Notes: generated from the sequence alone by a model not told the origin. A DNA stretch of 45,370 nt from an uncultured bacterium (GCA_937858275.1 CALLZK010000021.1:1-45370), one strand, 5' to 3'. Counted from the first letter of the stretch, positions 1-41,159 are shown. Translations and numbers: made by a program.

Positions 1-2424
1 ATCTTCGTTTGTGATTGAGATTGTTGGGGCTGGTAAGGCAGTTCCACTACCATCATCAGCTCCAGAACCCCCATCAGTTCCAGAACCGCCATCAGTTCCA
101 GAACCGCCGCCGTCACCAGTTCCAGAACCGCCTCCACCGTCAGTTGGAGTTGTCTTATTTCTTGTACAATTAGTTGATGTGCCCCCGTTTAACCCATTAC
201 ATGTCCATGTCCAAGAATTTGCATTTGTATTTATGGAAGATGCCTGTCCAGATGAACACAAAGGTGCTACTGGTGCAGTTGTTCCGTCTGTTGTAGCTGT
301 AGGATGGCATTGACCATTTGTCGGTGATGTATTTGCCAAAACAGTTATATCCCAAGTCATAATTCCACCATTAAAATTTCTATTTATTCTACCAGGAACA
401 CCTTCAAAACCCATAAATGCATTTACAGGCTTACCGCTTGCAACACCACATCCTGGATTATTGTTACCAGTATTGTTACTTGTAACCGCAGTTCTAACAT
501 TGGTATATATACAACCAAACAATGTGGCTGATCCAGAATTTACATTTGCTGTAATTTTTGTGGTTCCAGCAGACTGAGCAGTACATTCCCATTTAACATT
601 ACTAATTTTTGTACAAGAAAGATTTGAATTATTTAATGCTAAATCAGCACTTAAACGTGGTCCATTTATTCTCATGACAGCAGTTCTATTTCCGTCTCTA
701 ACAGATAAATTGGTACCACAATTTGGAGTATCCCAAGCTCCACCAGATGCATTATATGTGCAAGATGATGCCAATTCAACATATACCTTTTGTCCTATTT
801 GCAATGTTGTTCCATTATTACCCAGCAATCGACCGGTAATATTTCTAGTAGCTGTTCCGTTTTTAAATGCAGTTCTTGTATCTCCAGCAGATGTATATCC
901 AACACTAAAATTAAAAGAGTGTGATAATGCCCTGTTTGTTCCTGATATGACAGGTTGTGCAAATCCAATTTTTGGTCCATTAAAAATGGTATAAATTCCC
1001 AAAAACAAAAATACGATAAGCAAAACAGAGAGCAATGCAATTGTTATTGATCTTAATTTACCACTCTTAATTTTTGAATAAACCAATACCAATAAAGCTA
1101 ATGTTATTATTGCCAAAAATAAGTAAACCAGATAAAACATTGAGAAAATTTCACAAGATAAAGGATCAATTACTTTGCAATCATACTCAGCTGTGTAAGT
1201 GTCTAAAATGTTTCCTTCAGAGTCGGTAATTTCTGAAACCAATTTAACATAATTTAATTTTTCTAATGCCGCAACATTAATTGCTGCTGCCTCAACCTCA
1301 CTTGAAATTGGAGTTTTATAATTTCCAGAACTAATTAAATTTCCTTTTTTATCAAAGAGTTTTAAAGAAATATTTTTTAATTCATCTGAACCAATAGAGG
1401 TATTGTGATAACAAATAAATGCTCTAAATTCTTCACCTTTTTTAATTGGAAAAGATGTTATTGCCTGATAATTTATCCTATCTTTTCCAACACCATTTGA
1501 AACCATAAGTGTGTCTCCCCACTCTCCGTCTTGAGATATAAAATCGTATCCAGTGGTCAAAAATCTAATATTTACCAGTGACTGGTATTCTTCGCCAGAA
1601 ATAGAAATTTTCAAATAATATACTGATCTGTCTATATTTTCTACATTATATGTCAAATTGAAGGTGGAATTTGGTAAAATTTTAACTTTTTCAATATTTG
1701 TCTTTATTAAATCTTCTTCTCTTAAACTATCCCAATAGTACAAATCGTATTTTATATTTAGTTCGATTTCTTTATCAAGCAAATTTTTTACTGGTTGGGA
1801 AATGGAAACATTTGAATTTTTTTCAAATTCTGGCCAATTACCAATATGAACATATGTTTGACCATTTATACTGGTCATAGTTCTATCTATAACGAAAGGA
1901 GTTTTTGTATTTGACATTATTTCAAATGTAGAAAAACCGGCTATTATTTCATTTGTAAATGGCAAACCACCCAAATTAAACCTCTTATCTACTGAAAAAA
2001 AATAATCTATTCTGTAGTTACCAGCATCTGAATTTTTTGGCATTTGCCAATTAAAATATATTGGCAAGGAACTTTTCGCTGGTATAGAAACTTTTTCATA
2101 TAGAATTTTTTCTTCGATTATATGATGGCCTTCTGTTTCCCAATTATTATCATTTACCCTACTCAATCTGGCAAATAAATATCCATCGACAATTGGATAG
2201 TCATTAGAATTAGATACTTTTCCAACAAAGTTTATTTTATCACCGGAATTATTTGATACATGTATAGTATCCTGTTCTAATCCTGCGGTCACACTAATAC
2301 TTTGAAATTTATAAAGTCCAGGATCAAAACATTCGACTGGCTGTAAATTATTATCTTGTGCAAAAGTAAAAACTGGTATTACAAATAATAATAAAAAAGC
2401 ACTTAACAATTTTCTAATTTTCAT
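1..2424 (-). CDS. Large (>=808 aa, runs off the left edge) surface protein: signal peptide, beta-rich extracellular region, central two-TM hairpin, second Cys-rich extracellular region, Gly/Ser/Asp linker
   Basis: Missing from the ORF track because there is no stop in the window. I read the minus frame codon by codon from ATG 2424 (MKIRKLLSAFLLLFVIPVFTFAQ) to base 1 and found no stop. Hydrophobic segments MFYLVYLFLAIITLALLVLVYS and ITIALLSVLLIVFLFLGIYTIF lie at about 985-1140. One NGQC..LCSSG..WTWTCNGLNGG..C repeat lies at 166-318. Confidence 0.85.
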   Translation of the reverse strand, partial: MKIRKLLSAFLLLFVIPVFTFAQDNNLQPVECFDPGLYKFQSISVTAGLEQDTIHVSNNSGDKINFVGKVSNSNDYPIVDGYLFARLSRVNDNNWETEGHHIIEEKILYEKVSIPAKSSLPIYFNWQMPKNSDAGNYRIDYFFSVDKRFNLGGLPFTNEIIAGFSTFEIMSNTKTPFVIDRTMTSINGQTYVHIGNWPEFEKNSNVSISQPVKNLLDKEIELNIKYDLYYWDSLREEDLIKTNIEKVKILPNSTFNLTYNVENIDRSVYYLKISISGEEYQSLVNIRFLTTGYDFISQDGEWGDTLMVSNGVGKDRINYQAITSFPIKKGEEFRAFICYHNTSIGSDELKNISLKLFDKKGNLISSGNYKTPISSEVEAAAINVAALEKLNYVKLVSEITDSEGNILDTYTAEYDCKVIDPLSCEIFSMFYLVYLFLAIITLALLVLVYSKIKSGKLRSITIALLSVLLIVFLFLGIYTIFNGPKIGFAQPVISGTNRALSHSFNFSVGYTSAGDTRTAFKNGTATRNITGRLLGNNGTTLQIGQKVYVELASSCTYNASGGAWDTPNCGTNLSVRDGNRTAVMRINGPRLSADLALNNSNLSCTKISNVKWECTAQSAGTTKITANVNSGSATLFGCIYTNVRTAVTSNNTGNNNPGCGVASGKPVNAFMGFEGVPGRINRNFNGGIMTWDITVLANTSPTNGQCHPTATTDGTTAPVAPLCSSGQASSINTNANSWTWTCNGLNGGTSTNCTRNKTTPTDGGGGSGTGDGGGSGTDGGSGTDGGSGADDGSGTALPAPTISITNED
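58..141 (-). repeat. Imperfect 18-24 bp coding tandem repeat (DGGSGT linker)
   Basis: AG(T/C)TCCAGAACC recurs at 58, 76, 94 and 118 and encodes DGGGGSGTGDGGGSGTDGGSGTDGGSGA. Confidence 0.85.
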
Positions 2425-2454
2425 AAATATATTTTAAATTTAATAATATTATTT
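2410..2454 (-). repeat. 45-bp direct repeat, copy 1 (5' leader plus first codons MKIRK)
   Basis: Identical to 3100-3144 (TTTTCTAATTTTCATAAATATATTTTAAATTTAATAATATTATTT on +). Confidence 0.9.
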
Positions 2455-2456
2455 AT

Positions 2457-2510
2457 ATTATACAACAAGAAATCACCGTATCGGTGATTTCTTGTAAATT
2501 ATGTGGATAA
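2457..2510 (-). terminator. 54-bp cassette, copy 1: DnaA-box-like 9-mer, 14-bp hairpin (intrinsic terminator) and TATAAT
   Basis: Stem ACAAGAAATCACCG (2465-2478) / CGGTGATTTCTTGT (2482-2495). TGTGGATAA at 2502-2510. On the minus strand the hairpin is followed by TGTATAAT. Confidence 0.8.
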
Positions 2511-2535
2511 TTATAATATATTTTTACCAATAAAA

Positions 2536-3114
2536 TTATTCCCCCCTGATACAAACAAGCTGACGACTCAGTACTACATTAGAATCAAAATCATCTTTAG
2601 TTGAACATTGTATTCTATAAATACCGGGCTCTACCCAAAATCCAGATTCATCATTATCAAATACTAATGGATCATTAGATGGGGTAAATTCAATTTTTGA
2701 AAACAAAACCATGTTTTGATTTACAGAAAATATATTACAGAAGCCCTCATGAGAAGATGTAACCTTAAATCTAATTGCACATTCTAATTTGGAATAATTT
2801 GCAGAATCTACATCATTATTTAAATTTAAATTATTATCAATTTCTTCATCTGTGATTTTAATTAATATTAATGATTGTGGGGAAATTTCACTTTCTACTT
2901 CATCTGATAATATGTCTATGTAATTTTCATCAAATTCATCAGCATTATTCTGAAATGTTTGATCTGGTGCACAGTCATTTGATGTGTCACCCTTTAAATA
3001 ATCACATTTGGGCATTGTATAATTCCTATCAAAACCGAATATCAAGAAAATAATTAGTCCAAGTAGTACCAAAAAAGAAATTGCGAGAATGGTAGTTATT
3101 TTTCTAATTTTCAT
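2536..3114 (-). CDS. Membrane-anchored protein with a C-terminal 4-Cys domain shared with the neighbouring 656-aa ORF
   Basis: 192-aa ORF with an N-terminal TM (ILAISFLVLLGLIIFLIFGF) and C-terminal CAIRFKVTSSH..C..VEPGIYRIQC..SRQLVCI. Confidence 0.8.
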   Translation of the reverse strand: MKIRKITTILAISFLVLLGLIIFLIFGFDRNYTMPKCDYLKGDTSNDCAPDQTFQNNADEFDENYIDILSDEVESEISPQSLILIKITDEEIDNNLNLNNDVDSANYSKLECAIRFKVTSSHEGFCNIFSVNQNMVLFSKIEFTPSNDPLVFDNDESGFWVEPGIYRIQCSTKDDFDSNVVLSRQLVCIRGE

Positions 3115-3144
3115 AAATATATTTTAAATTTAATAATATTATTT
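3100..3144 (-). repeat. 45-bp direct repeat, copy 2
   Basis: Identical to 2410-2454. Confidence 0.9.
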
Positions 3145-3180
3145 TATAATAAAACACAAAATTTGACTAAATTTTATTGA

Positions 3181-5115
3181 TTACATTTCAACAGGCCCTG
3201 AAGCACCAATACACCTAAGTTGTTTACTATTTGTTTCCTTTTTTGACTCGCCATCAATAGAAATTTCACACTTTACATAATATATACCAGGTAACACAAG
3301 TCTTTCCAGTGATTTTGTGTATTCTGTTGATGGCTCAAAATCCTGAGGTTTAGACATTTGAATTGGTGAATTTGCATTATATATAGCACAAGTACTGGGG
3401 TGGGAAGATTTTACTTCAAATCTGATTATACATTGAGGTGTTGCATATGCAAATGTATTATATGTATCTGTTAAATTTCCCTCACTATCTATATCTTCCT
3501 TAGATATAGATATGTCAAAATCTTGTTTATTTTTTATACATATAACTGTTCCTCCACCTGCAACACCCTCACAATTCCATTTTCTAAAATCAGTTTCTTC
3601 AATCACCTCACTAGGAGATCCCTGCAAACATATTGATTCTGATGGATTAAAATCTCCAGTAACAGTTGCCGTCGGATTACACTGTCCATCTTTTATTTTT
3701 GGTTTTTCACAACTGCTTGATGAACCGTTATTTGCACCAAGACAGTTCCATGTCCAATAATCTGGTGAGTCTTCTTTTAGATTATGATTTAGATTATGAT
3801 ATGTACCAGATGAACATGCGGAATTTGGATTTGGTGGAACTCTTCCTGGCAGTAAATCCCCCGGATTACATTGTCCATCAATCATTTTTGGTCTAGTGCA
3901 ACTTGCTGGTGGCACATTATCTAAAACATTTCTTTCACTAGAACATGTCCAATTCCATGGTCCAGAACCTGTGACAGTTGTAGGTGTTCCAATTGAACAG
4001 AGATCGGCTGGTTCGGTTGGTGGTGGATCCATACTTGGTATTATTGCTGTTGAACTACAACGACCAAGCGGTGCAAGTTCTTTCACACAACTAGCTGTTG
4101 CACCATCATTTATACCAACACATGTCCAATTCCATGGACCAGAACCTGTGACAGATGTGGGTGTTCCAATTGAACAGAGATCGGCTGGTTCGGTTGGTGG
4201 TGGATCCATACTTGGTATTATTGCTGTGGAACTACAACGACCATCCACACATGATCGACTAGTCGGAACATCAGAACATGTTGCCGGATTTGTAGTAGTT
4301 GAATACGAAACCGTATTTGCAGTTTGAAATCCGTTTGTGCAACTGTTCCATGTTGTTACAGCACTTATATAAGTACAAGAATAATTTTTTGCACAACTAA
4401 CAGATGTGCCACCATTTGAACCATTACATTTCCAATTCCATGGACCAGAACCTGTGACAGATGTGGGTGTTCCAGATGAACATAATGGACTTGTTGGTGA
4501 TGTTGTTCCGGAAATTATTGCTGTGGAACTACATTGGCCATTAACCAAAAGAGGTTTTGTACAACTAACAGGTGTGCCTCCATCTGAGCCATTACATGTC
4601 CAATTCCATGGACCAGAACCTGTGACAGATGTGGGTGTTCCAGATGAACATAATGGACTTGTTGGTGATGTTGTTCCGGAAATTATTGCTGTGGAACTAC
4701 ATTGGCCATTAATTGCACAACTATGAGTATTGCAATCTCTAGTTTCTCTATTACCACAACCATCTGTTCTGCTTTGTGTTCCAGTTCCACATGTTGCAGA
4801 ACAAGTGCTCCATGCAGACCAACTTGGTCGACATGCTCTACATATACGATTTGGTTTATTGCTACTACAATCACTAAAGTCATCGCAAAACCAATATTGC
4901 CCCGGAATACCGCTAACATAATTAGCCGGTTTCCAAGTCCAACCCTTTGTGACAAAACCATTTGCAGCACATTTCCAACTGCAAGCTCTTGTTGTATAAT
5001 CAGAAGAAGATGTACTCCAACACTCTTGTACACCCTGAGCAAAAACATTTGTATTTGTTAAAAAAAACATAAAAAAGAAAATTGCTGAGATTAAAAAAAA
5101 CATTTGTCTTTTCAT
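3181..5115 (-). CDS. Secreted Cys-rich repeat adhesin-like protein with a thrombospondin type-1 (TSP1/TSR) repeat
   Basis: ORF extends to 5151; likely start MKRQMFFLISAIFFFMFFLTNTNVFAQ at 5115 (signal peptide). WSAWSTCSATCGTGTQSR motif at 4717-4833. Six roughly 56-60 aa NGQC/GRC..C..G..WxWxC.G...G...C repeats. Confidence 0.85.
   Translation of the reverse strand: MKRQMFFLISAIFFFMFFLTNTNVFAQGVQECWSTSSSDYTTRACSWKCAANGFVTKGWTWKPANYVSGIPGQYWFCDDFSDCSSNKPNRICRACRPSWSAWSTCSATCGTGTQSRTDGCGNRETRDCNTHSCAINGQCSSTAIISGTTSPTSPLCSSGTPTSVTGSGPWNWTCNGSDGGTPVSCTKPLLVNGQCSSTAIISGTTSPTSPLCSSGTPTSVTGSGPWNWKCNGSNGGTSVSCAKNYSCTYISAVTTWNSCTNGFQTANTVSYSTTTNPATCSDVPTSRSCVDGRCSSTAIIPSMDPPPTEPADLCSIGTPTSVTGSGPWNWTCVGINDGATASCVKELAPLGRCSSTAIIPSMDPPPTEPADLCSIGTPTTVTGSGPWNWTCSSERNVLDNVPPASCTRPKMIDGQCNPGDLLPGRVPPNPNSACSSGTYHNLNHNLKEDSPDYWTWNCLGANNGSSSSCEKPKIKDGQCNPTATVTGDFNPSESICLQGSPSEVIEETDFRKWNCEGVAGGGTVICIKNKQDFDISISKEDIDSEGNLTDTYNTFAYATPQCIIRFEVKSSHPSTCAIYNANSPIQMSKPQDFEPSTEYTKSLERLVLPGIYYVKCEISIDGESKKETNSKQLRCIGASGPVEM
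3943..4242 (-). repeat. Near-identical coding tandem duplication, 177-bp period
   Basis: 3943-4065 versus 4120-4242 differ at only a few bases and encode GRCSSTAIIPSMDPPPTEPADLCSIGTPT(T/S)VTGSGPWNWTC. Confidence 0.9.
4431..4712 (-). repeat. Identical 114-bp coding duplication, 168-bp period
   Basis: 4431-4544 equals 4599-4712, compared base by base. Confidence 0.95.
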
Positions 5116-11230: not shown

Positions 11231-13654
11231 TTAAATTTGTGTTTTGTTTTTATATTTTTCTGTAACTATATACCAAGAAATATTATCTTTTTCACCTTTT
11301 TTTGGAAACTTAAAATATCGAGTAACAATATTTCCATAAGATAACATTTTTTGAAAATCAAAATCGTTCTGTGTTTGAGCGGAATAAATTCTTATTCCAT
11401 TTTCATATTCATAAAAATCATTTTCTGATTTATTGTTTGATTTATCTACGGAATCACCTGAACCTGCTTCTAATTTTGATCGTAAAAATCTTTCAACAAT
11501 TTTTTCTTGTGACCAATCACCTTCTGATTCTTTTTTTGTGACAAAGTCAAAATTCGTATCATCTCTTTCAATATTCAAAACTTCTATTTCAGCGACCGGT
11601 TTCCATTCTGTTGCAACAAAACCTCTTTCAATATAATTTGCACTAATTCCGACATGTGGATTACATTCGGCGATAATTTTTTTATCTTTCGCCATCAAAT
11701 CCAAGTCGCTCAACATCATAGCTTCGCCCAATCCAGATCCGTGGAATTGTCTATCAACATTAAAAGAAGCAAAATGAATTGTTTTTTCATTAACAGTGTC
11801 TATTCTATAAAATCCGGTTATATCGTCTTTGTATCGCAAAATTGTAAATTCTGAATCTGCATATTCCAGCGATTTTTCGAATGAATCAAGTAATATTTTG
11901 GTCAATTCTGGATATTTATCGTAATTTTCTTTATACATTTGACGCATTGTGTCGATGTCTTGTGGAGAGATTTTTTCTGGATTTATATGTCCGGTTAATT
12001 CAAAATTTTTAACATCGGAAACATTAATACTCTCACCTTTTGATTTAATATTTTTCAATGCTGATGAAAGCAAAATCATGTCTGCTTTGATCCTCTGCAA
12101 ATCTGCCAAAACTTCATCAAGTGATAATTCCAAACCATTTTCTTTTGCTTTTTTATGAGCATCAATAAAAGTTATCAAAATATCTTTGGCTTGTGACATA
12201 ACCCAAGATCTAATACTTTCTAATTCAACCTTATCAGTAATTTGATTATTTAATTCGGCATTGATGAAATTTTCTATATTATATGACTGATCGACAATAT
12301 CTGAATACTTTTTAAACAAAACTTTTGCAGAATCTGGATAATTTTTAGCAAAATCAAAAATTACATCTCCATCTATATCAAAAAAATCAACAGACAAAAA
12401 ACATCTAACACCCGTTGTTCCAAATTTTTTTACAAAATTCAATATTTCATCTTTATTTTTTTGGGAAAGTAAAACTCCAAAAAGAACCATTTGCTCTTCC
12501 CATTTAATGTCTCCCAAACTTAATCCCGCTTCCTTCATCATTGGTCTAAAAACATTCATCTGATATGACTGATCGTTTAATGCTACAAGCCTAGAAGCAT
12601 AATCAGAGTCACTTTCATTCTTCTTTCTTTGACAAAAAACATCTGGTTTATATGGAATAATTCTACCATCCATAAAATCCGCACCGAAATTTGCTTTCCT
12701 AACAACATCTGCTTGGCTAAATCCTTGTAAAAGAAGCGGTTGATATAGGTTTTCAATCTCCTCTTTTGTGGCCAAGCTAAAATATGCAATGAGCCTCAAA
12801 TCACCACCGTGTACTGATTCGAAAATACCAACTGTGTTTTTATCTAAGCTGGCCATTTTTTGATTTTCATTCCTCTCAATAGATGTTCCAACAAAATTAT
12901 TTCTACCAATATAATAGTTCGCATACCCATTTACTCCACTAAAAGAGATATATGGTTTATCACCCAAAGGTTTTACTTTATATATAAAATCTTCTTCTTT
13001 TATATTTGTACCTGGATCAAAATCTGTTTCATTAAAAACACCTGCATTAATTAATTTTTTTGCATATTTCCTTATAAAAGAATTTGGTTTATGAGAGAAT
13101 TTTTCACCCTTTATTGATGGTAAATATTGATAATTAGACTCCTTGAGATATCTTGCGGATAATTTTCTAATCGAACCATCTTTATCATTTACTAATAAAT
13201 TTCCGGTTTTCTGATCTCTATAGACCCCGAGATCATTGAGCATTTTGGCTAAAAATAATTCCACAATAGAAAAAGCAGACCCATCTTCTAATATTATATC
13301 CTCTGTGCTCCAACGGATAACACCAATAAGTTCTCTAAGCTCGTAGTGTCCAACAGACCAAATCCCAGATAATGCCTCCCTTTCATTTCTAGGAAAAGTT
13401 AACAAAGGGGCTTCTTTTCCATTAATACAGACCCTCTCTGAAGCCAAGTCGATTAAGAGATTAAGTAGACCCATCCCTTTATGATTCGTGGAGTTTCGAT
13501 TTTCTTTTTTTAGTGCTTCTATATTAAAATACAATTTTCCTTCTTTTTCTGATATAAGACCGATTTTTTTCGCCACAGAAAAAAAATCCTCGTTTTTTCT
13601 CTCAGAAAAGCCAACTGGTTTTTCATCACTCTCGATGGAAATATATTCTTTCAT
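11231..13654 (-). CDS. Large hypothetical protein with a C-terminal GNAT acetyltransferase-like domain
   Basis: 809-aa ORF (ATG at 13654, TTG at 13660). FASFNVDRQFHGSGLGEAMM matches GNAT motif A (V..x.x.G.G.G); followed by SANYIERGF. Confidence 0.7.
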   Translation of the reverse strand: MKEYISIESDEKPVGFSERKNEDFFSVAKKIGLISEKEGKLYFNIEALKKENRNSTNHKGMGLLNLLIDLASERVCINGKEAPLLTFPRNEREALSGIWSVGHYELRELIGVIRWSTEDIILEDGSAFSIVELFLAKMLNDLGVYRDQKTGNLLVNDKDGSIRKLSARYLKESNYQYLPSIKGEKFSHKPNSFIRKYAKKLINAGVFNETDFDPGTNIKEEDFIYKVKPLGDKPYISFSGVNGYANYYIGRNNFVGTSIERNENQKMASLDKNTVGIFESVHGGDLRLIAYFSLATKEEIENLYQPLLLQGFSQADVVRKANFGADFMDGRIIPYKPDVFCQRKKNESDSDYASRLVALNDQSYQMNVFRPMMKEAGLSLGDIKWEEQMVLFGVLLSQKNKDEILNFVKKFGTTGVRCFLSVDFFDIDGDVIFDFAKNYPDSAKVLFKKYSDIVDQSYNIENFINAELNNQITDKVELESIRSWVMSQAKDILITFIDAHKKAKENGLELSLDEVLADLQRIKADMILLSSALKNIKSKGESINVSDVKNFELTGHINPEKISPQDIDTMRQMYKENYDKYPELTKILLDSFEKSLEYADSEFTILRYKDDITGFYRIDTVNEKTIHFASFNVDRQFHGSGLGEAMMLSDLDLMAKDKKIIAECNPHVGISANYIERGFVATEWKPVAEIEVLNIERDDTNFDFVTKKESEGDWSQEKIVERFLRSKLEAGSGDSVDKSNNKSENDFYEYENGIRIYSAQTQNDFDFQKMLSYGNIVTRYFKFPKKGEKDNISWYIVTEKYKNKTQI

Positions 13655-13690
13655 ATTCAAAATAATAACATAAAAATTAAACAGCTCACA

Positions 13691-13813
13691 TTCACCTCAA
13701 TTACACAGACATCAATAAAAATATTAAGAAAGAGATGTTTAGAGGAGAGAGTTTTAAAAACACTCACATCCATTCCCTAAATATCTTTCTGATGTCTGTA
13801 TAATTAGGGTGAA
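13691..13813 (-). ncRNA. Candidate rod-shaped structured RNA or processing stem
   Basis: 24-bp imperfect terminal stem (13691-13714 / 13790-13813) where 2 of 3 mismatches become G-U pairs on the minus strand. Nested AAAGATATT/AATATTTTT and GGATGT/ACATCT stems; pyrimidine-rich segment left unpaired. Confidence 0.5.
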
Positions 13814-13912
13814 AATTAACTTTTTCGCCATTTTTGGCTCATCAGTCAGGACACACATCCTGAGAAAGTGGTGCGCTTTTAAACCATTGGTGCGCACCAA
13901 ACCAAAACAAAT

Positions 13913-14338
13913 TCAAAACATTTCCGTCATCTTCCTCCTTTCTAAGTCCCTCTCCCTCATTTGCAAGACGGAAGTCTTGCAACTTTTTATTTCTATTAGC
14001 AACCTCGCGGTTGCTTCTTTGATTTCCTCAATGACTTTTGGGGAAATCAAAATTTTTTTACCGTCTTCTCCGAAGACGGTTATGTGGTTTTGGCCACCCC
14101 AGGGGTGGCAAGTGAACAACACTTCTCCGGATGGAATCCGAAAAGAAATACTTCGTAGATACCTGTCATAGGTATCTACCTTATATCCCTTTTTCTCCAG
14201 AAGTTTTTCTATAATCACCTGATAGTACTGTGGATTCCCCCAGGCACTCTCTATGTTAATGATGTTATCATAATCTAATAACATCATTGACAACGCGTCT
14301 AGCGGGTTCAGCCATTTGATTAAAAATTTTGTTATCAC
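13913..14338 (-). CDS. Hypothetical protein (141 aa, no recognised family)
   Basis: GTG start preceded by a strong SD-like AGGGGAG; globular-looking composition. Confidence 0.7.
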   Translation of the reverse strand: MITKFLIKWLNPLDALSMMLLDYDNIINIESAWGNPQYYQVIIEKLLEKKGYKVDTYDRYLRSISFRIPSGEVLFTCHPWGGQNHITVFGEDGKKILISPKVIEEIKEATARLLIEIKSCKTSVLQMRERDLERRKMTEMF

Positions 14339-14624
14339 TTCTCTCCCCTAATCTGGTGTATTGTTTTGGCACACCTGTTTGAAGCCCACTATCTATCAAA
14401 CCACCACACCATGTGATGATTTGAATAAAAAGGAGAAATTTACGTATTCTCCAGTTGGCTTGTGCCACGGCCGACACCACATCGGCAACCACCACGCAAT
14501 TGAGTCTCAAGATAAGTATACTTATCCTTCCCTCATCTAGCTTTTGCGCAAAGCAACTTTGCATGTCTCACGACATTCACAAGCTGTCCCAGTTTCCGCT
14601 GGTTCGGTGATGCCTTTGGACGAC

Positions 14625-15158
14625 CTACTGGGCCGTCCGTCGACTCACAAGGTGTTTGTGCACCTCGGCCGCAACCGCGCTGTCATACAGCGGGTTATGG
14701 GTGGCACCGAAATCCGGCACCACGAGCCCCCACTTGTCGACATACTTGTCGACAGAGGTGGGATCCTCTCCGGCCTGCGCGAGTTCCCCCGCAACATCCA
14801 GAAGAGGATACGGACCGTCCCAGTCCCCGATGCACCCTTGCGAGTGCATGTCCCGAAGGAGATTACTCTCCACGGGAGTTCCCATGTGGACGACTATCTC
14901 CACACCTAACTTGTTCGCCAAGTAGAACTTGGCGAAATCGATAAGCAGAGACTCGTATGTCTCATGGGAGACGGGGAGACCACTGAGTGTGGGCAACACA
15001 TTCGTGCGAACCCACTCGTCAGTCACTGCTGTATCGGGCAAGCGACCGACAAACCGTCCAACTTCACGACCGGACTCGTCATAGACGAGTGCACCGATTG
15101 CGAAAGCACGGCCCCATAGACCATTGGTCTCGGCGTCAAAAGAAAAGATTTTTTTCAT
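14625..15158 (-). CDS. DEDDh (DnaQ-like) 3'-5' exonuclease, Rv2179c/RNase AS-like
   Basis: ExoI FDAETNG, VTDEWVRTNVLPTL and ExoIII THNPLYD. GC-rich (39/60 in 14761-14820). SD GAGG 10 nt upstream. Confidence 0.8.
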   Translation of the reverse strand: MKKIFSFDAETNGLWGRAFAIGALVYDESGREVGRFVGRLPDTAVTDEWVRTNVLPTLSGLPVSHETYESLLIDFAKFYLANKLGVEIVVHMGTPVESNLLRDMHSQGCIGDWDGPYPLLDVAGELAQAGEDPTSVDKYVDKWGLVVPDFGATHNPLYDSAVAAEVHKHLVSRRTAQ

Positions 15159-16029
15159 CTTTTCTTTTCCTCTGCATACTATTTTCCTAGTCTCCTAGGT
15201 TTTTATGCAGAGGTCCTTATGGTGCTTGACTGGGCACACCAACCCAGAGTGTTTTTGTTATAGGAAACACTCAACCATCTCAACGAACTAACAACCGAAG
15301 TGTTGTGGGCTCGATAGAAAGGAGATTTTCTTGAAATCCCCTACACCTTTTCAGGTGTGATTTAAACAGAATGAATTTATTTTTATATTACTTGTAAAAA
15401 TGCCGTCCAAATCACACCTGTCCATCTTTGTTTTGTCGAAAACCAGTTTTTAACCCGTCTCGTTTTACTACCACTAGCAAAAGATGAACTTGTGTGGATT
15501 TAATATTCAATTATCAACGAACTCCTCACCCTCTCCTCTCAATCTCATCGTGACTCTCTCCTCTTTTGGTCTGGCAAAGGGCACCTTTCCAGAAAAAATC
15601 ACACGACTTTGAGGTAGCAAGGATATTTCTAGACACAAAGAGTGGTTAATTCCTTATGTCGAGCCGATATCATTACTATTAGATACGGTTGATGTAATTT
15701 GCCTTATAGACATAGTTCCAATTCATGGCAGATGTTTGAGGCCTGGCACTTCACAGAACATTTACATCTTCAAACATAATAGGTTTAAATTTGGCTTCCA
15801 ATATTCTCTCCTCTTTGGGAAAAGTATTTCCGCAGAAAATTCACTCTCTCCTCTTTCTACACTTGCCGGCTGTAGGCACCGTCTAGATTAGGCCCGAATA
15901 TCTGTGGTCCAATCAAGATCAGACAGTGAACTTCAAATTTAACTCTATTACCTTTTAACGAACTTTTTGATGATTTGATTTTCAGACGATCGCCTCTTTA
16001 CGACCGGCATCTTTTCTTTTCATCATTCT
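15159..16029 (-). ncRNA. Candidate long structured 5' leader or ncRNA (about 870 nt, no ORF >=60 aa)
   Basis: No ORF in the track; many perfect stems (15169-15213, 15248-15271, 15352-15420, 15571-15592 and others); repeated AGAGGAGAG and AGTTCGTT motifs; lies between a consensus promoter and the exonuclease. Confidence 0.5.
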
Positions 16030-16035
16030 GAGTAT

Positions 16036-16064
16036 ATAATAGCAAAGTTTTGACAAAATGTCAA
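16036..16064 (-). promoter_or_regulatory. Near-consensus sigma70 promoter driving the island leftward
   Basis: Minus strand TTGACA (16064-16059), 17 nt, then TATTAT (16041-16036), with an extended -10 TG. Confidence 0.8.
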
Positions 16065-16217
16065 TACTATTGTGACAAATATATTAAAAATGTCAGAAAA
16101 ACCATAACTATCAACAAAAAAACCTTTATTTATATGTGGATAAGTGTCACAGAGTTGTGACAAGATGTGCTATATTTATTATATTGAATGTGTTTAGACA
16201 AAATTTATTAGACAAAT
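16050..16217. promoter_or_regulatory. Cluster of TGACA/TGTCA operator-like sites between the island promoter and the TrmB gene
   Basis: TTGACA-AAA-TGTCAA (16050-16064), TGTCAC-N6-GTGACA (16145-16162), TTAGACAAA twice, and TGTGGATAA at 16135-16143. Confidence 0.55.
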
Positions 16218-16243
16218 TTACCAAAAAAATAATCACAACAAAT

Positions 16244-17002
16244 ATGCAACAAGAAATATTAAATTCCGCAGGACTTACCACAGAACAATCAAAGATATAC
16301 ACCACCCTATTAGAAAACGGCTCAATGCAAGCCAGAAAAATAGTCCTAAATACAGGTATAAAACGGGGATTGGTCTATAAAGCACTTGATCAATTAATAG
16401 AAATGGGTCTAGTCACCAAACACGATTCTTTAGGAAAAATAAGTGTCTTCAATCCAAATCATCCAAATTTAATTTTAAAAATTATTGAAGAAAAAAAGAA
16501 AAACCTAGAAACAATAGAGGATTCCGTAAAATCAGTTGTTGGCCAAATGACTTCTAGTTTTAATCTTTTGACCGGAAAACCAAATGTTCGATTTTATGAA
16601 GGTGAAAAAGGTTTAAAGGAAGTGCTGGACGATTCTCTGTATTCAAAATCAGAAGTTTTATCATATGCAGACCTGGAATCAATTGAGAAATTTATTCCAG
16701 AAATTAATAAAAAACATGTAGCAGATAGAAAAAAACATGGGGTAATAAAAAAGGCAATGGTTCTAGATTCTGAATTTAATAGAAAAGTAATTCAAAATTA
16801 TGACAAAGAAGTGACTAATGTTCGTTTTATGGATGTATCTGAATCAAAACCATTTCAATCACTTATGAATATTTACGATAACAAAGTTTCGTATTTGACC
16901 TTGGACACCGACAGAATGATTGGTGTAATTATAGAAGATGAACATATTGCCGAAATGCAAAGATATATTTGGGAATTTAGTTGGAAAAATGCAAAAGATT
17001 AA
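16244..17002 (+). CDS. TrmB-family transcriptional regulator (N-terminal wHTH)
   Basis: Start MQQEILNSAGLTTEQSKIYTTLLENG..TGIKRGLVYKALDQLIEMGLV; PNVRFYEGEKG; C-terminal IYDNKVSYL..GVIIEDEHIA. Confidence 0.9.
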   Translation: MQQEILNSAGLTTEQSKIYTTLLENGSMQARKIVLNTGIKRGLVYKALDQLIEMGLVTKHDSLGKISVFNPNHPNLILKIIEEKKKNLETIEDSVKSVVGQMTSSFNLLTGKPNVRFYEGEKGLKEVLDDSLYSKSEVLSYADLESIEKFIPEINKKHVADRKKHGVIKKAMVLDSEFNRKVIQNYDKEVTNVRFMDVSESKPFQSLMNIYDNKVSYLTLDTDRMIGVIIEDEHIAEMQRYIWEFSWKNAKD

Positions 17003-17090
17003 CAATCACTAAATAATATTTTATATTGCAAAAAATTTAGTAATCTATGCTAAAATACAAAAATTAACAAATTCAACAAAAATTTCAAAA

Positions 17091-17789
17091 ATGAATAATA
17101 AAATATTAATTTTTACAGACGGAGCATCAAGAGGTAATCCAGGACCTGGTGGTTGGGGTGCAATTATTGTTGAAGGAAATAACATTATAGAACTTGGTGG
17201 CGATGAAATAAAAACCACAAATAACAGAATGGAAATAATGGCCGCCTATGAAGCAATCAAAAAAACTCCTATTGGAACAAAAATAAAAATTTTTACAGAT
17301 TCGGCTTATCTAATAAACGGCATTACAAAATGGGTTTTTGGATGGATGAAAAATAATTGGCTTACAATAGAAAAAAAAGAGGTCTTAAATAAAGATTTAT
17401 GGGAAAAATTATTTAATGAAGTTCAAGACAGGGAAATACAGTGGTGTAGAGTAAAGGGGCATGCTGGAATTGATGGGAATAACAGAGCAGACAAAATTGC
17501 AACATCTTTTGGGCAAGGAGAACCAGTTAGACTTTTTCGTGGAGACAGAAGAAATTATGAAATAAATGTAAATGAACCAAACGAAGATGATTTGGCAGAA
17601 AAATCAGATCGAGATCGAAGAAGTTCAAAAGCTTATTCTTATTTATCTTTAATTGATGGGAAACTTGAAAAACACAAAACATGGGAAGATTGTAAATCAA
17701 GAGTGGATGGTGCCAAGGGTGCAAAATTTCGAAAAGCAATTTCTGCTGAGGATGAAATTGAAATAATTAAAAATTGGGGAGTTAAGTAA
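17091..17789 (+). CDS. rnhA: Ribonuclease HI with a C-terminal hybrid-binding-like (Cauli_VI/viroplasmin) domain
   Basis: FTDGASRGNPGPGGWG, TTNNRMEI, TDSAY, VKGHAG and NNRADKIA; tail HKTWEDCKSRVDGAKGAKFRK. Confidence 0.93.
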   Translation: MNNKILIFTDGASRGNPGPGGWGAIIVEGNNIIELGGDEIKTTNNRMEIMAAYEAIKKTPIGTKIKIFTDSAYLINGITKWVFGWMKNNWLTIEKKEVLNKDLWEKLFNEVQDREIQWCRVKGHAGIDGNNRADKIATSFGQGEPVRLFRGDRRNYEINVNEPNEDDLAEKSDRDRRSSKAYSYLSLIDGKLEKHKTWEDCKSRVDGAKGAKFRKAISAEDEIEIIKNWGVK

Positions 17790-17791
17790 AA

Positions 17792-19216
17792 TTATCTAAA
17801 TTGATAAAAATGAAGACCATCAGAAATTTTTATAAGCCCAATATCAACATCTTCATCAGAATTAGAAGCATTGTATCTTTTAACACTTTCAGTAAAATCG
17901 TGAGCTACTCCATAAATCATAACCTTGTGATTATCAAAACCATCCTTAGTCAAACTTTCAATTGCAAAGTCTTCTCTTTTTGATTGCAAAATATCAAATT
18001 GTTTTTTAACATAACAGATTTCATCAATTAAATCCAAAACATTAAAACCCTCTCCCAATTCAATCGTCCAAGATAATAATTTTTGTCTTAGTAAATTATA
18101 TGTTTCTAAACTGGTATTTTGAATATTTTTAAAATTAAAATCAATTAAAGTGTGTAACAGTTCAGAGCATTCTGCTTCTTTTAAACTCAATTTTTCTATA
18201 ATATTATGCAATTCATTAATTTTTTTGTTTAAATAAGTTATTTTTTCAATCCCAATTTGGTTTAGAGTCTTATCTTCAGCCGGTAAAACATCTATTTTAC
18301 CGTTAAGATATAGATGTGTTGCGGCACAATTAAAATCGGCCATTCTAACATTTTTATAAGAAGATAGCATAAGAGTTTCAAAATTTATTAAAAAATTTGA
18401 CAAATCAGAAATTCTTTCAGAAAATTGCACATCTTCTTGTGTCAATAAACGACACTCATTAGGATTTATCTCAAATCTATATTCATTTTCTGCTTTTTGT
18501 TTATATATAAAATCTCTTAATTTTTCTAAAATATCTTCTATCTTTTTTTTATCAATAACATTATCTGCAAAACCGGTATTTAATATTTTAATATACTCTT
18601 GCAAAACACCAACCACATAATCAGCATTATCAAAATCCAGTAATTCAAAATCTAATACCGTGTCTAAATATTGATTAAATTCAACAACAGCATTAATTTT
18701 ATTTTTAGAACTTTCGCTTTCAAAATACAACTTAGATTCTTCTGAAAAACCCTCATCGTAAATTTTCCCATCAGAAATTTTTGCAACATCTTCTAAAAAA
18801 ATTAAAATTTTTCTTTGCCACATGATTGGTTCAGTATTGTAAATTACATTGTTTTCTAACGGAGAAATATGTGATTGGCCAATATGAATAATGTATTTAC
18901 CCGAAGGAGAAATGTGCTTAATTTGTACAAAAAAATTATTGTCACCGATTTTATCTAAAAGTTCTTTTCCAAAAACACTTGTTAAGGCCTGCTCTTGCTG
19001 GGCTGGATAGTGTTTATTCTCGGTCTCTTCTTTTACCAAGTTTTTTATAACTGGAGCAATAGCAGTCATCAAAAAAATTGAAAGTAATGCAGATTTTTTA
19101 GATAAAATTTTTGATATTGATTCGGTTTTAAAAAACGGATTTTTAAGAAACTCTACTATTTTTGAAGAGTCCATTTTTTCTCTTTTCTCTTTTTTTGAAT
19201 TAATTTTTTCAAACAT
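17792..19216 (-). CDS. Hypothetical protein with an N-proximal hydrophobic segment; possible TraB/TIKI/EreA-like fold
   Basis: 474-aa ORF with motifs IIHIGQSH, IYDEGF and VMIYGVAHDF; the fold call is weak. Confidence 0.6.
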   Translation of the reverse strand: MFEKINSKKEKREKMDSSKIVEFLKNPFFKTESISKILSKKSALLSIFLMTAIAPVIKNLVKEETENKHYPAQQEQALTSVFGKELLDKIGDNNFFVQIKHISPSGKYIIHIGQSHISPLENNVIYNTEPIMWQRKILIFLEDVAKISDGKIYDEGFSEESKLYFESESSKNKINAVVEFNQYLDTVLDFELLDFDNADYVVGVLQEYIKILNTGFADNVIDKKKIEDILEKLRDFIYKQKAENEYRFEINPNECRLLTQEDVQFSERISDLSNFLINFETLMLSSYKNVRMADFNCAATHLYLNGKIDVLPAEDKTLNQIGIEKITYLNKKINELHNIIEKLSLKEAECSELLHTLIDFNFKNIQNTSLETYNLLRQKLLSWTIELGEGFNVLDLIDEICYVKKQFDILQSKREDFAIESLTKDGFDNHKVMIYGVAHDFTESVKRYNASNSDEDVDIGLIKISDGLHFYQFR

Positions 19217-40968: not shown

Positions 40969-41159
40969 AATTTATTTAAAAATTTTTAATAATTTTTGAC
41001 TTTTTCAAACTTAAAAGATAACATAAAAATATTAGCAATTTAAAAAATAAAATCTTCTCAAAATCTCTTTTTGAAAGAAAAGAATAAACACGATAGACTG
41101 GCCAAAAAAACGATAAAAAATGAAAAAGTAAAAGAGTATAAGAGAGGGTTTATAAAAAT

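Follow-up and report, generated by a model that had tools for sequence, protein, structure and literature searches.

A putative TrmB-repressed exonuclease operon with a hammerhead ribozyme and conserved structured RNAs in an uncultured Patescibacteria lineage

We describe a 2.4-kb segment (positions 13691-16064) of a 45,370-nucleotide stretch of DNA from an uncultured bacterium (GCA_937858275.1, CALLZK010000021.1:1-45370; hereafter, the window), in which the gene for a small, probable exonuclease is embedded in conserved RNA structure and followed by a type III hammerhead ribozyme. We tentatively read this segment as a horizontally acquired exonuclease operon, repressed by a TrmB-family protein, in which the hammerhead and its flanking hairpins would cut and insulate the transcript. 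The source lineage is Patescibacteria (Paceibacteria-like), and a near-identical contig (L083, NCBI) was deposited as Candidatus Paceibacterota. A first-pass annotation of the window had proposed an RNA-controlled nuclease module composed of a TrmB-gated promoter, a long structured leader, a locked exonuclease, an orphan reading frame and a rod-like RNA; the observation is confirmed and its interpretation partly supported, the annotation having overlooked the hammerhead, which lies between the orphan frame and the rod, and the family-wide, highly structured exonuclease coding sequence (CDS). The elements of the segment all lie on the minus strand and are listed here with the two flanking genes.

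16244..17002, plus strand: gene for a TrmB-family winged helix-turn-helix (HTH) regulator, 252 aa from ATG (Pfam PF01978, E=3.3e-11)
16036..16064, minus strand: predicted sigma-70-type promoter, TTGACA-17-TATTAT with TG extension (11/12 match; predicted start near 16029)
16030 to 15159, minus strand: leader
14625..15158, minus strand: gene for a probable DEDDh-type 3'-5' exonuclease, 177 aa (probable catalytic residues D8, E10, E97, H154 and D159)
14340..14624, minus strand: block B, a structured RNA directly 3' of the exonuclease stop, in the gap that separates it from ORF2
13913..14338, minus strand: ORF2, a candidate orphan open reading frame (ORF), 141 aa from GTG or 124 aa from ATG at 14287
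13661..13912, minus strand: tail
11231..13654, minus strand: downstream cistron with its ATG at 13654, ~807 aa, whose residues 573-685 match a GNAT acetyltransferase domain (Pfam Acetyltransf_10/_1)

Ribozymes of the hammerhead and twister types are abundant in bacteria and, glmS aside, we know of almost none with an established role. Processing of polycistronic mRNAs has been suggested for bacterial hammerheads but is unproven, their gene associations are unexplained, and why such ribozymes cluster near certain genes is an acknowledged unsolved question (PMC6765202). The association of one small gene family with a hammerhead at a fixed position and orientation constitutes a compact and easily tested system.

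The ribozyme of the window lies in the tail, with a hairpin on either side.

13870..13898, minus strand: hairpin GGUGCGC...GCGCACC abutting stem III, seen in the sequence and in the minimum-free-energy (MFE) fold, which would end the upstream cleavage product
13816..13873, minus strand: type III hammerhead ribozyme, core CUGAUGAG...CGAAA, predicted to cleave after C13864 (between 13864 and 13863)
13679..13825, minus strand: rod hairpin (block C), ~60 imperfect bp, apex GAGUG...ACUCUCUCCUCUAA, with a pyrimidine box at 13752..13741

The catalytic core is complete, with U13865-A13823 as the A15.1-U16.1 pair and C13864 as H17, and is framed by stems III (ACUUU/AAAGU), I (UCAGGA/UCCUGA) and II (GCCA/UGGC). 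We regard the element as a genuine type III hammerhead, for which self-cleavage is predicted. A permissive Rfam scan returns it as Hammerhead_3 at 13871..13817 (37.0 bits, E=1.2e-5 in a 3-kb search). Further copies were sought by pattern scan and then with a covariance model (R1) built from nine copies, in which all three stems covary: 14 of 16 pairs are changed on both sides and 95% of cells are paired, against at most 46% in slid controls, and none of 500 shuffles reached the observed value. The model returns 26 matches in ~0.73 Mb, all on the exonuclease strand (including the near-identical copy in L083 and an L095/L096 duplicate), and hammerheads are found beside exonuclease homologues in ~21 other loci, always sense to the gene. 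Twelve of the 26 matches fall within 250 nt 3' of the stop codon, most commonly 40-55 nt past it (L009, L022, L032, L070, L071, L073, L075, L076, L077), and three lie just 5' of the gene (L004, L015, L076). The usual arrangement consists of a small hairpin, the hammerhead, a long hairpin and the ribosome-binding site of the next gene. A hairpin analogous to that abutting stem III precedes the hammerhead in L009, L022, L070, L073, L075, L077 and L032, and long hairpins follow it at other loci too; in the window the arrangement is stretched, with block B and ORF2 standing between exonuclease and hammerhead.

Like the type III hammerheads of bacterial and phage operons (RF00008), this ribozyme shows the core CUGAUGA...GAAA, the A15.1-U16.1 pair, a NUH triplet (UUC), three helices with the open end in stem III, and an intergenic location in a co-directional operon. 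It differs from them in being minimal, with a 4-bp stem II, a 4-nt loop and a score below the cut-off, and in being bound to one gene family within a fixed hairpin-ribozyme-hairpin setting. The hammerhead itself belongs to a known class; what appears to be new is its tightly gene-linked setting. RiboJ, a synthetic insulator, combines a hammerhead with a downstream hairpin and yields a defined 5'-OH mRNA end whatever was transcribed before it. The present arrangement may be likened to RiboJ in that a hammerhead of self-cleaving type precedes a hairpin located shortly before the start of the next gene, and differs from it in being natural, in its extra upstream hairpin and in a downstream hairpin that is a 60-bp rod with a conserved apical box.

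Two loci carry paired hammerheads, on both sides of the exonuclease gene in L076 (1201-2070) and twice after the gene, ~430 nt apart, in L073 (3559-4042); such pairs could release a defined RNA. At other loci, 8 of 23 hammerheads are followed immediately on their 3' side by a boxA-like sequence, GYTCTTTRAA, and a ninth by a partial match (sites at L022 4615, L015 3804, L009 4615, L003 4773, L073 3617/4043 and L076 1272/2071), which suggests a ribozyme-boxA-hairpin module there; the sequence is absent from the window.

The rod of the first-pass annotation begins 4 nt after the ribozyme; it is an inverted repeat with a fold z-score of -8.1. Its apical box recurs on long hairpins with unrelated arms in eight lineages (the window, W; L001, L002, L088, L084, L105, L013 and L018), so that the rod RNA of that annotation stands as a conserved hairpin. 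The pyrimidine box is a 12-nt perfect complement of two purine boxes in the leader, and it is found downstream of the exonuclease across loci, on the same strand, where chance would yield fewer than one occurrence. L087 has neither the rod box at this position nor the second purine box, which lends slight support to a link between them.

Structure extends into the exonuclease CDS. Measured against synonymous-codon permutations, the window CDS folds with z=-8.9, and all 21 homologues tested (45-100% identity, including Clostridia and viral copies) fold better than their permutations, with z from -2.6 to -14 (median -5.7); the same test on 12 TrmB genes gave a median z of -0.5. Family-wide selection for intramolecular base pairing in this CDS is strongly supported. 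GC content at third codon positions (GC3) is 0.64-0.9 in exonuclease genes and, because it stays high between members whose synonymous sites are saturated, it appears to be actively maintained, likely by RNA structure. Selection for RNA structure throughout a CDS is, to our knowledge, unusual for a bacterial gene, and it suggests that the nuclease message evolved to withstand RNA decay, perhaps by its own product. A common conserved CDS fold was considered and rejected, the consensus being weak although each sequence is highly structured alone. Codon choice in the CDS creates perfect palindromes at 15089-15075 and 15131-15117: all 14 aligned homologues pair CUCGUC-UAU-GACGAG (encoding L-V-Y-D-E), and many retain GAGACC-AAY-GGUCUC (E-T-N-G-L). 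Long antisense ORFs over the exonuclease gene (14544-14925 on the plus strand of the window, with equivalents in 49 loci) cluster as 'families', but they are most simply seen as a by-product of high GC3 and nucleotide conservation rather than as a sign of genes.

The encoded protein has 651 homologues (90%-identity clusters among 5.8e9 proteins), with 65-86% identity across many Patescibacteria lineages, and a profile search of 1.8e9 proteins returned 907 clusters at 50% identity (E<=1e-3). Homologues occur in Paceibacteria relatives, Saccharibacteria, Uhrbacteria, Moranbacteria, metagenome-assembled genomes (MAGs) of Clostridia and one Actinomycetota MAG, in Streptococcus oralis and S. mitis (28% identity) and in 12 IMG/VR viral contigs. 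Residues D8, E10, H91, E97, H154 and D159 are invariant or nearly so; the ExoI D8-x-E10 and ExoIII H154-x4-D159 motifs are invariant, and the ExoII position is seemingly held by E97 (H91-M-G-x-x-V-E97) rather than by aspartate. The AlphaFold model (pLDDT 93) finds its best Foldseek matches in RNase T, Pol III epsilon, ExoX, RNase AS and Orn (TM 0.6-0.7, probability 1.00). By sequence or profile, the window protein has no match in Pfam (RNase_T and Rv2179c-like included), NCBIfam (E<=0.1-1), PHROGs, PADLOC or PDB; among 50 divergent relatives, one matches Pfam Rv2179c-like (RNase AS family) at 4.5e-7 and one RNase_T at 0.0096. On account of the invariant residues, the fold matches and the Rv2179c-like link of one relative, the protein is probably a divergent DEDDh 3'-5' exonuclease with an ExoII glutamate, as the fold search leads us to agree with the first-pass annotation, and probably an exoribonuclease with RNase AS/Rv2179c and RNase T as distant relatives. 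It shares with the known DEDDh exonucleases (RNase T, Pol III epsilon, ExoX, Orn, RNase AS; PF00929, PF16473) what appear to be the DnaQ-like fold and the D-x-E and H-x4-D motifs, and departs from them in having no sequence-level match, in the apparent ExoII glutamate, in its very compact 177 aa, and in the high GC3 and hyper-structured mRNA found in every lineage tested.

The promoters of the operon and of trmB are divergent, and both carry putative operators.

16145..16162, no strand assigned: palindrome TGTCA-N8-TGACA adjoining trmB, a putative autoregulatory operator, kept upstream of trmB in nearly all TrmB-bearing loci
16051..16095, no strand assigned: putative operator half-sites flanking and overlapping the -35 box (TGACA 16095-16091, TGTCA 16077-16073, TTGACA 16064-16059, TGTCA 16055-16051)

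Besides the window, at least 20 loci have a divergent upstream gene for a TrmB-family HTH protein; trmB stands divergent to the exonuclease gene in 15 of 64 genome loci, as well as in L084, L087, L088, L089, L091 and L105. TGTCA-N7-9-TGACA boxes mark both promoters in at least 15 lineages and persist where TrmB identity falls to 24-30%. Over the -35 box, TGTCA-N8/9-TTGACA is kept in the window, L001, L084, L105, L011, L089, L023 and L021, and the promoter is conserved in L001 and L105. Since the operators are conserved at both promoters even where TrmB has diverged, and a TrmB HTH protein is encoded beside a conserved inverted repeat that overlaps the promoter, the TrmB-gated promoter of the first-pass annotation is well supported, with binding predicted from these sequences. 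As in other TrmB regulators with palindromic operators, the TrmB winged HTH (PF01978) is N-terminal, the genes form a divergent pair and an inverted repeat overlaps the target promoter; here, by contrast, the regulator is predicted to act on a nuclease operon and not on sugar metabolism. The C-terminal part of the protein has no match to the known sugar-binding TrmB domain in Pfam or NCBIfam, and PADLOC matches only the generic HTH parts of CARF/Csa3 models. We know of almost no studies of gene regulation in Patescibacteria, and TGTCA-N8-TGACA offers a candidate regulon marker for the TrmB-like regulator in this phylum.

The leader and the start of the exonuclease gene hold the following elements.

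15765..15959, minus strand: block A 5' domain, with nested helices P2, P3 and P5, the conserved loop CAGCCGGYAAGYG and purine box 1 (covariance model R2, 137 bits)
15499..15764, minus strand: block A 3' domain, including purine box 2 (nhmmer matches in L001, L092, L088/89, L002, L084/85, L087 and L105)
15843..15854, minus strand: purine box 1, AGAGGAGAGAGU (box 2 at 15564..15553; degenerate third copy at 15819..15805)
15284..15341, minus strand: two-hairpin module, upstream copy (second copy at 14452..14395), with stems that covary in the alignment
15186..15199, minus strand: small hairpin CCUAGGAGACUAGG with GGAG in its loop, ~30 nt before the start codon
15138..15168, minus strand: start-region lock hairpin, a 12-bp perfect inverted repeat in which AAAAGAAAAGAU pairs with AUCUUUUCUUUU (codons 4-7)

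Block A (~460 nt, 15959..15499) is conserved in ten lineages, the number also found with the R2 model of its 5' domain. In that domain 14 of 30 pairs are changed on both sides (11 of 16 in helix P2); the paired fraction of cells is 83.8%, slid controls do not exceed 52%, and none of 500 shuffles reaches the observed values. Over the whole of block A, RNAalifold gives 25 compensatory pairs out of 65, and one 125-nt stretch is more conserved than the coding sequence. The long structured leader is thereby upheld by the covariation of block A, the remainder (15498..15160) being common only to the near-identical contig L083. The motif GAGGAGAGAG occurs upstream of the exonuclease gene, on the same strand and usually in two copies, in nearly every bearing locus (~14 lineages), with a chance expectation of ~0.7 per strand in 705 kb; in L007 and L014 it lies just downstream of the gene instead. 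The two-hairpin module, a portion of block B, is found on both sides of the exonuclease ORF, which is thus bracketed by a direct repeat of a single structured motif; a profile built on the 3' portion of block B has further matches upstream of the exonuclease in L083 (97-192, window lineage) and in L001. A GGAG-loop hairpin with covarying stems is present in the window, L001, L002, L084, L087, L003 and L091.

The locked exonuclease of the first-pass annotation holds for the close relatives of the window and fails for the family. With its 5' arm AAAAGAAAAGAU at 15168..15157, the lock hairpin is predicted to occlude an AUG at the base of its loop; the duplex has -13.8 kcal/mol in the window, and among the 13 closest relatives 11 show compensating changes and a value of -9 or lower. 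As a family-wide trait the lock was rejected: over 83 loci the median duplex energy equals that of controls, and the hairpin is real only in the sub-clade of the window. The sequence of the 5' arm is repeated identically at 16020..16009; the leader begins with GAUGAAAAGAAAAGAUG (16024-16008), a near-duplicate of the sequence before the exonuclease AUG that is not clearly conserved in relatives, and this copy could rival the 5' arm in pairing with the coding side of the lock. Short peptides encoded in the leader after the purine boxes were considered and rejected, as the corresponding ORFs are not conserved in the alignment.

Comparison with known RNA families gave a divided answer to the Rfam scan that had been proposed: leader, block B and rod are unmatched, and the sub-threshold hammerhead was found. 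With Rfam 15, permissive settings included, leader, block B and rod of the window and six relatives return only chance-level miRNA and snoRNA matches, and none to riboswitches, group I/II introns, GOLLD, ROOL, HEARO, OLE or other ribozymes. Over the window and 54 loci, Rfam finds the sub-threshold hammerhead, tRNAs and one DUF805b motif, and no riboswitch, intron, large non-coding RNA or other ribozyme; no other ribozyme class was found in eight hammerhead-less loci. The boxA motif that had been expected did not materialize, as GYTCTTTRAMAA has no match with up to one mismatch inside 13691-16064, and no boxA/Nus antitermination leader of the GCUCUUUAACAA-like kind was found in the segment. The three RNAs (leader, block B, and the rod together with its box) and the family-wide structuring of the CDS appear not to have been described before; the three RNAs are conserved, covarying motifs absent from Rfam.

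In composition and layout the segment is much as the first-pass annotation had described it: GC-rich, hairpin-dense over its non-coding part, endowed with Shine-Dalgarno (SD) sites that most genes of its host do not have, and read from a consensus promoter. The window has ~30% GC and the segment a mean of ~43% (~0.43 in 100-nt windows over 13700-16099), with a maximum of 0.57-0.64 over 14600-14899 and 0.566 in the exonuclease ORF, against 0.303 for the remainder of the window. ORF-free sequence amounts to 1,410 nt (leader 872 nt, gap 286 nt, tail 252 nt). Against dinucleotide shuffles, MFE z-scores are -7.8 for the leader, -3.7 for the gap, -8.1 for the tail, -7.9 for ORF2 and -9.6 for the exonuclease CDS, with +0.4 for the adjacent TrmB CDS as a control. 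GGAG or GAGG occurs at -22..-4 in only 2 of the 32 large ORFs (>=150 aa) of the whole window, the exonuclease gene and the ORF at 41159, and the host appears not to use SD sites. The minus strand has no intrinsic terminator of note inside the segment, and no integrase, transposase or reverse transcriptase domain was found among the flanking ORFs scanned.

Exonuclease GC exceeds that of the flanks in almost every locus (median +13.5 points), and trmB is host-like in GC and synonymous sites. At 4-fold sites, the exonuclease genes of relatives sharing blocks A-C are 64-74% identical to that of the window, against 27-50% for the saturated TrmB genes, and relatedness is incongruent: the exonuclease gene of L084 is closer to the window than that of L001, yet its TrmB is far more distant. 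Foreign GC, this synonymous-site incongruence and SD use in a non-SD host support a recent horizontal exchange of the module, as earlier proposed, into a conserved trmB-GNAT neighbourhood. GNAT homologues directly follow the rod in L001, L002, L084, L088 and L105, and lie upstream of trmB in L003, L005, L007, L011, L015 and L052.

Should the operon work as we tentatively propose, the TrmB-like protein would repress the promoter, and the transcript would self-cleave after C13864 by means of the hammerhead. The upstream RNA, carrying the exonuclease and possibly ORF2, would then end in a stem-loop and a 2',3'-cyclic phosphate, and the downstream GNAT mRNA would start with a 5'-OH, the folded ribozyme and the rod. 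Because cleavage would give separate, hairpin-bounded upstream and downstream RNAs, the ribozyme and its flanking hairpins would constitute a natural RiboJ-like insulator and make each cistron independent of the other in stability and translation. Its cyclic-phosphate end, terminal hairpins and heavy internal structure would make the nuclease message a poor substrate for 3'-5' exonucleases, its own product included, and leader and start-codon lock would hold translation low until remodelled, possibly by pairing of purine and pyrimidine boxes.

Several observations weigh against this proposal. The Rfam score of the hammerhead is under the RF00008 gathering threshold of 48.5, owing to its short stem II and loop, and the MFE folds of both the isolated 3' region and the whole module pair its core elsewhere. 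Some 78% of exonuclease loci have no detectable hammerhead within 3-5 kb of flank on each side, the compact relative L105 also being without one, and the ribozyme must therefore be dispensable. The lock hairpin is not family-wide, distant homologues having ordinary AAGGAG sites and no lock. Helices within the CDS are out of register across the family, with a consensus of -44 kcal/mol against ~-260 for single sequences. Finally, as both boxes are invariant, covariation lends no support to their pairing.

Of the alternatives, it is credible, though on balance unlikely, that the gene is a resident exonuclease of RNA maturation or turnover, similar to RNase T, Orn or RNase AS, whose leader and 3' structures autoregulate it in the manner of rne, pnp and rnc, with an incidental hammerhead. 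Bacterial RNase genes as a rule have structured leaders that serve autoregulation, the DEDDh fold is nearest to RNase T with a remote link to RNase AS, purifying selection on the protein is very strong, and the trmB/GNAT neighbourhood is kept in two arrangements despite TrmB identities of 27-51%. The long structured leader before a putative ribonuclease gene may be compared to the rne 5' untranslated region, the pnp leader and the rnc messages, and might allow the enzyme to sense or restrict its own mRNA; it differs from them in having no sequence or Rfam likeness to them (rne5 included) and in a structure that extends through the CDS and 3' region. A resident role sits poorly with the patchy distribution of the family, whose 651 and 907 clusters are far below what a core gene of a large phylum would show, with its presence in Clostridia, an Actinomycetota MAG and viral contigs, and with the foreign composition, SD use and synonymous divergence incongruent with the flanking genes. 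The same mobility and foreign composition would suit a defence or toxin-antitoxin-like system, in which structured RNAs restrain or guide a toxic nuclease that phage infection or stress sets free. Variable cargo ORFs at two fixed slots of the operon, SAVED-TM and radical-SAM pVip-matching proteins in the block A-exonuclease slot of L002, homologues on 12 viral contigs and a sequestered start codon point in this direction. We nevertheless consider this identity, which the first-pass annotation had entertained, improbable: exonuclease, ORF2 and GNAT protein have no PADLOC match, the 150 neighbouring ORFs scanned are mostly housekeeping (Pol III alpha, RNase Y, Mur ligases, TruB, RecA) with scattered defence matches, and clustering of 1,776 ORFs gave only TrmB and the GNAT protein. 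Besides a regulator, the exonuclease has no conserved protein partner. Moreover, 65-86% identity across many Patescibacteria is unlike fast-evolving defence genes, and no repeats like the RNA arrays of type III antitoxins were found.

Very unlikely, in our estimate, is a selfish element acting at the RNA level, a ribozyme-delimited, DNA-encoded paired RNA akin to retrozymes or viroid-like RNAs that is excised, perhaps circularised, and thereby spread. The double hammerheads of L076 and L073, the extreme structure of all transcript parts, CDS included, across the family, the horizontal spread, and a ~2x depth and two-allele bubble in block A of the Logan assembly graph would fit it. Ribozymes at both ends, as in retrozymes, viroid-like RNAs or Obelisk-type elements, are however found only in L076, the window and most loci having a single hammerhead; no reverse transcriptase or replicase is nearby, the chromosomal setting beside trmB is fixed, and the predicted fold consists of local domains rather than one rod. 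We also give a low probability to the broader idea that the exonuclease-hammerhead unit is an unrecognised class of RNA-centred element, a self-processing RNA spreading among Patescibacteria, Clostridia and phages; such an RNA may be a riboregulator gating the nuclease or an excised, possibly circularised, exonuclease-protected RNA, and, if true, the tight gene-ribozyme linkage would explain one long-unexplained association of bacterial hammerheads. Among the four rivals, only an artefact, that is, a chimeric metagenome assembly or decayed coding sequence taken for structured RNA, is effectively excluded as far as the data allow. The GC shift at the segment borders is abrupt, Logan contigs break inside block A (15658-16082) and L083 stops at 15437. 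Yet L083 is an independent NCBI assembly with one substitution relative to the window over 5.8 kb, and the TrmB-leader-exonuclease junction is found again in L001, L084, L087, L088 and L105, for which reasons the segment is no assembly chimera; the order of elements is identical in independent assemblies from different samples, and this recurrence, together with covariation, refutes the artefact. The leader was likewise rejected as decayed coding sequence: no similarity at the ORF level was found, indel lengths among relatives do not keep to multiples of three, and base-paired positions change in concert.

The Logan contigs come from two activated-sludge runs (X1, X2), whose assembly fragments into short pieces at 15658-16082. 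Word depth there is about twice that elsewhere (20-24 vs 10.8), with a two-allele bubble of five single-nucleotide polymorphisms at 15804-15865, reflecting either a second copy of block A or a second strain. For 16083-18500 the word index gives 100% presence in both runs, and yet no Logan contig is placed there, a gap that may be due to the handling of very long contigs.

Block B, in the gap before ORF2, has relatives in L001, L002, L092, L088-90, L084-86 and L087, with 25 of 52 RNAalifold pairs compensatory and a fold z-score of -3.7. ORF2, earlier described as an orphan, remains so: its only homologues among 5.8e9 proteins are those of its own cluster, and it has no match in Pfam, NCBIfam, PHROGs, PADLOC or PDB. 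Relatives carry unrelated ORFs at two slots, one separating block A from the exonuclease gene and the other separating block B from the rod; ORF2 occupies the second, where relatives have unrelated ORFs of 146-533 aa. The ORFs after block B in L088 (4876-5790), L002 (4865-5782) and L087 (5864-7465) share an N-terminal region of ~70 aa (47-57% identity); those of L088 and L002 are homologous throughout and that of L087 has an unrelated, longer C-terminus, a layout that recalls polymorphic proteins. In L002, the first slot (2360-3705) holds a SAVED-TM protein and a radical-SAM protein matching PADLOC pVip, which look like defence-type cargo inside the operon.

Folded as a whole, the 2.4-kb RNA has an MFE of -881 kcal/mol with 69% of positions paired. 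The predicted long-range helices (15246-15218/14451-14481, 15383-15359/13904-13931 and 15963-15956/13844-13837) are nested, bracketing the exonuclease gene and the exonuclease-ORF2 pair, and the leader segment of the last, 15963-15956, is predicted to pair with the hammerhead core; without comparative support they are given no weight. In L027 (1366-1400), a DUF805b RNA motif scoring 51 bits, above the Rfam gathering threshold, lies 36 nt upstream of the exonuclease start. Adjoining trmB in the window is an RNase HI gene (17091-17789) whose product additionally matches, at its C-terminus, the RNase H1 hybrid-binding (Cauli_VI) domain.

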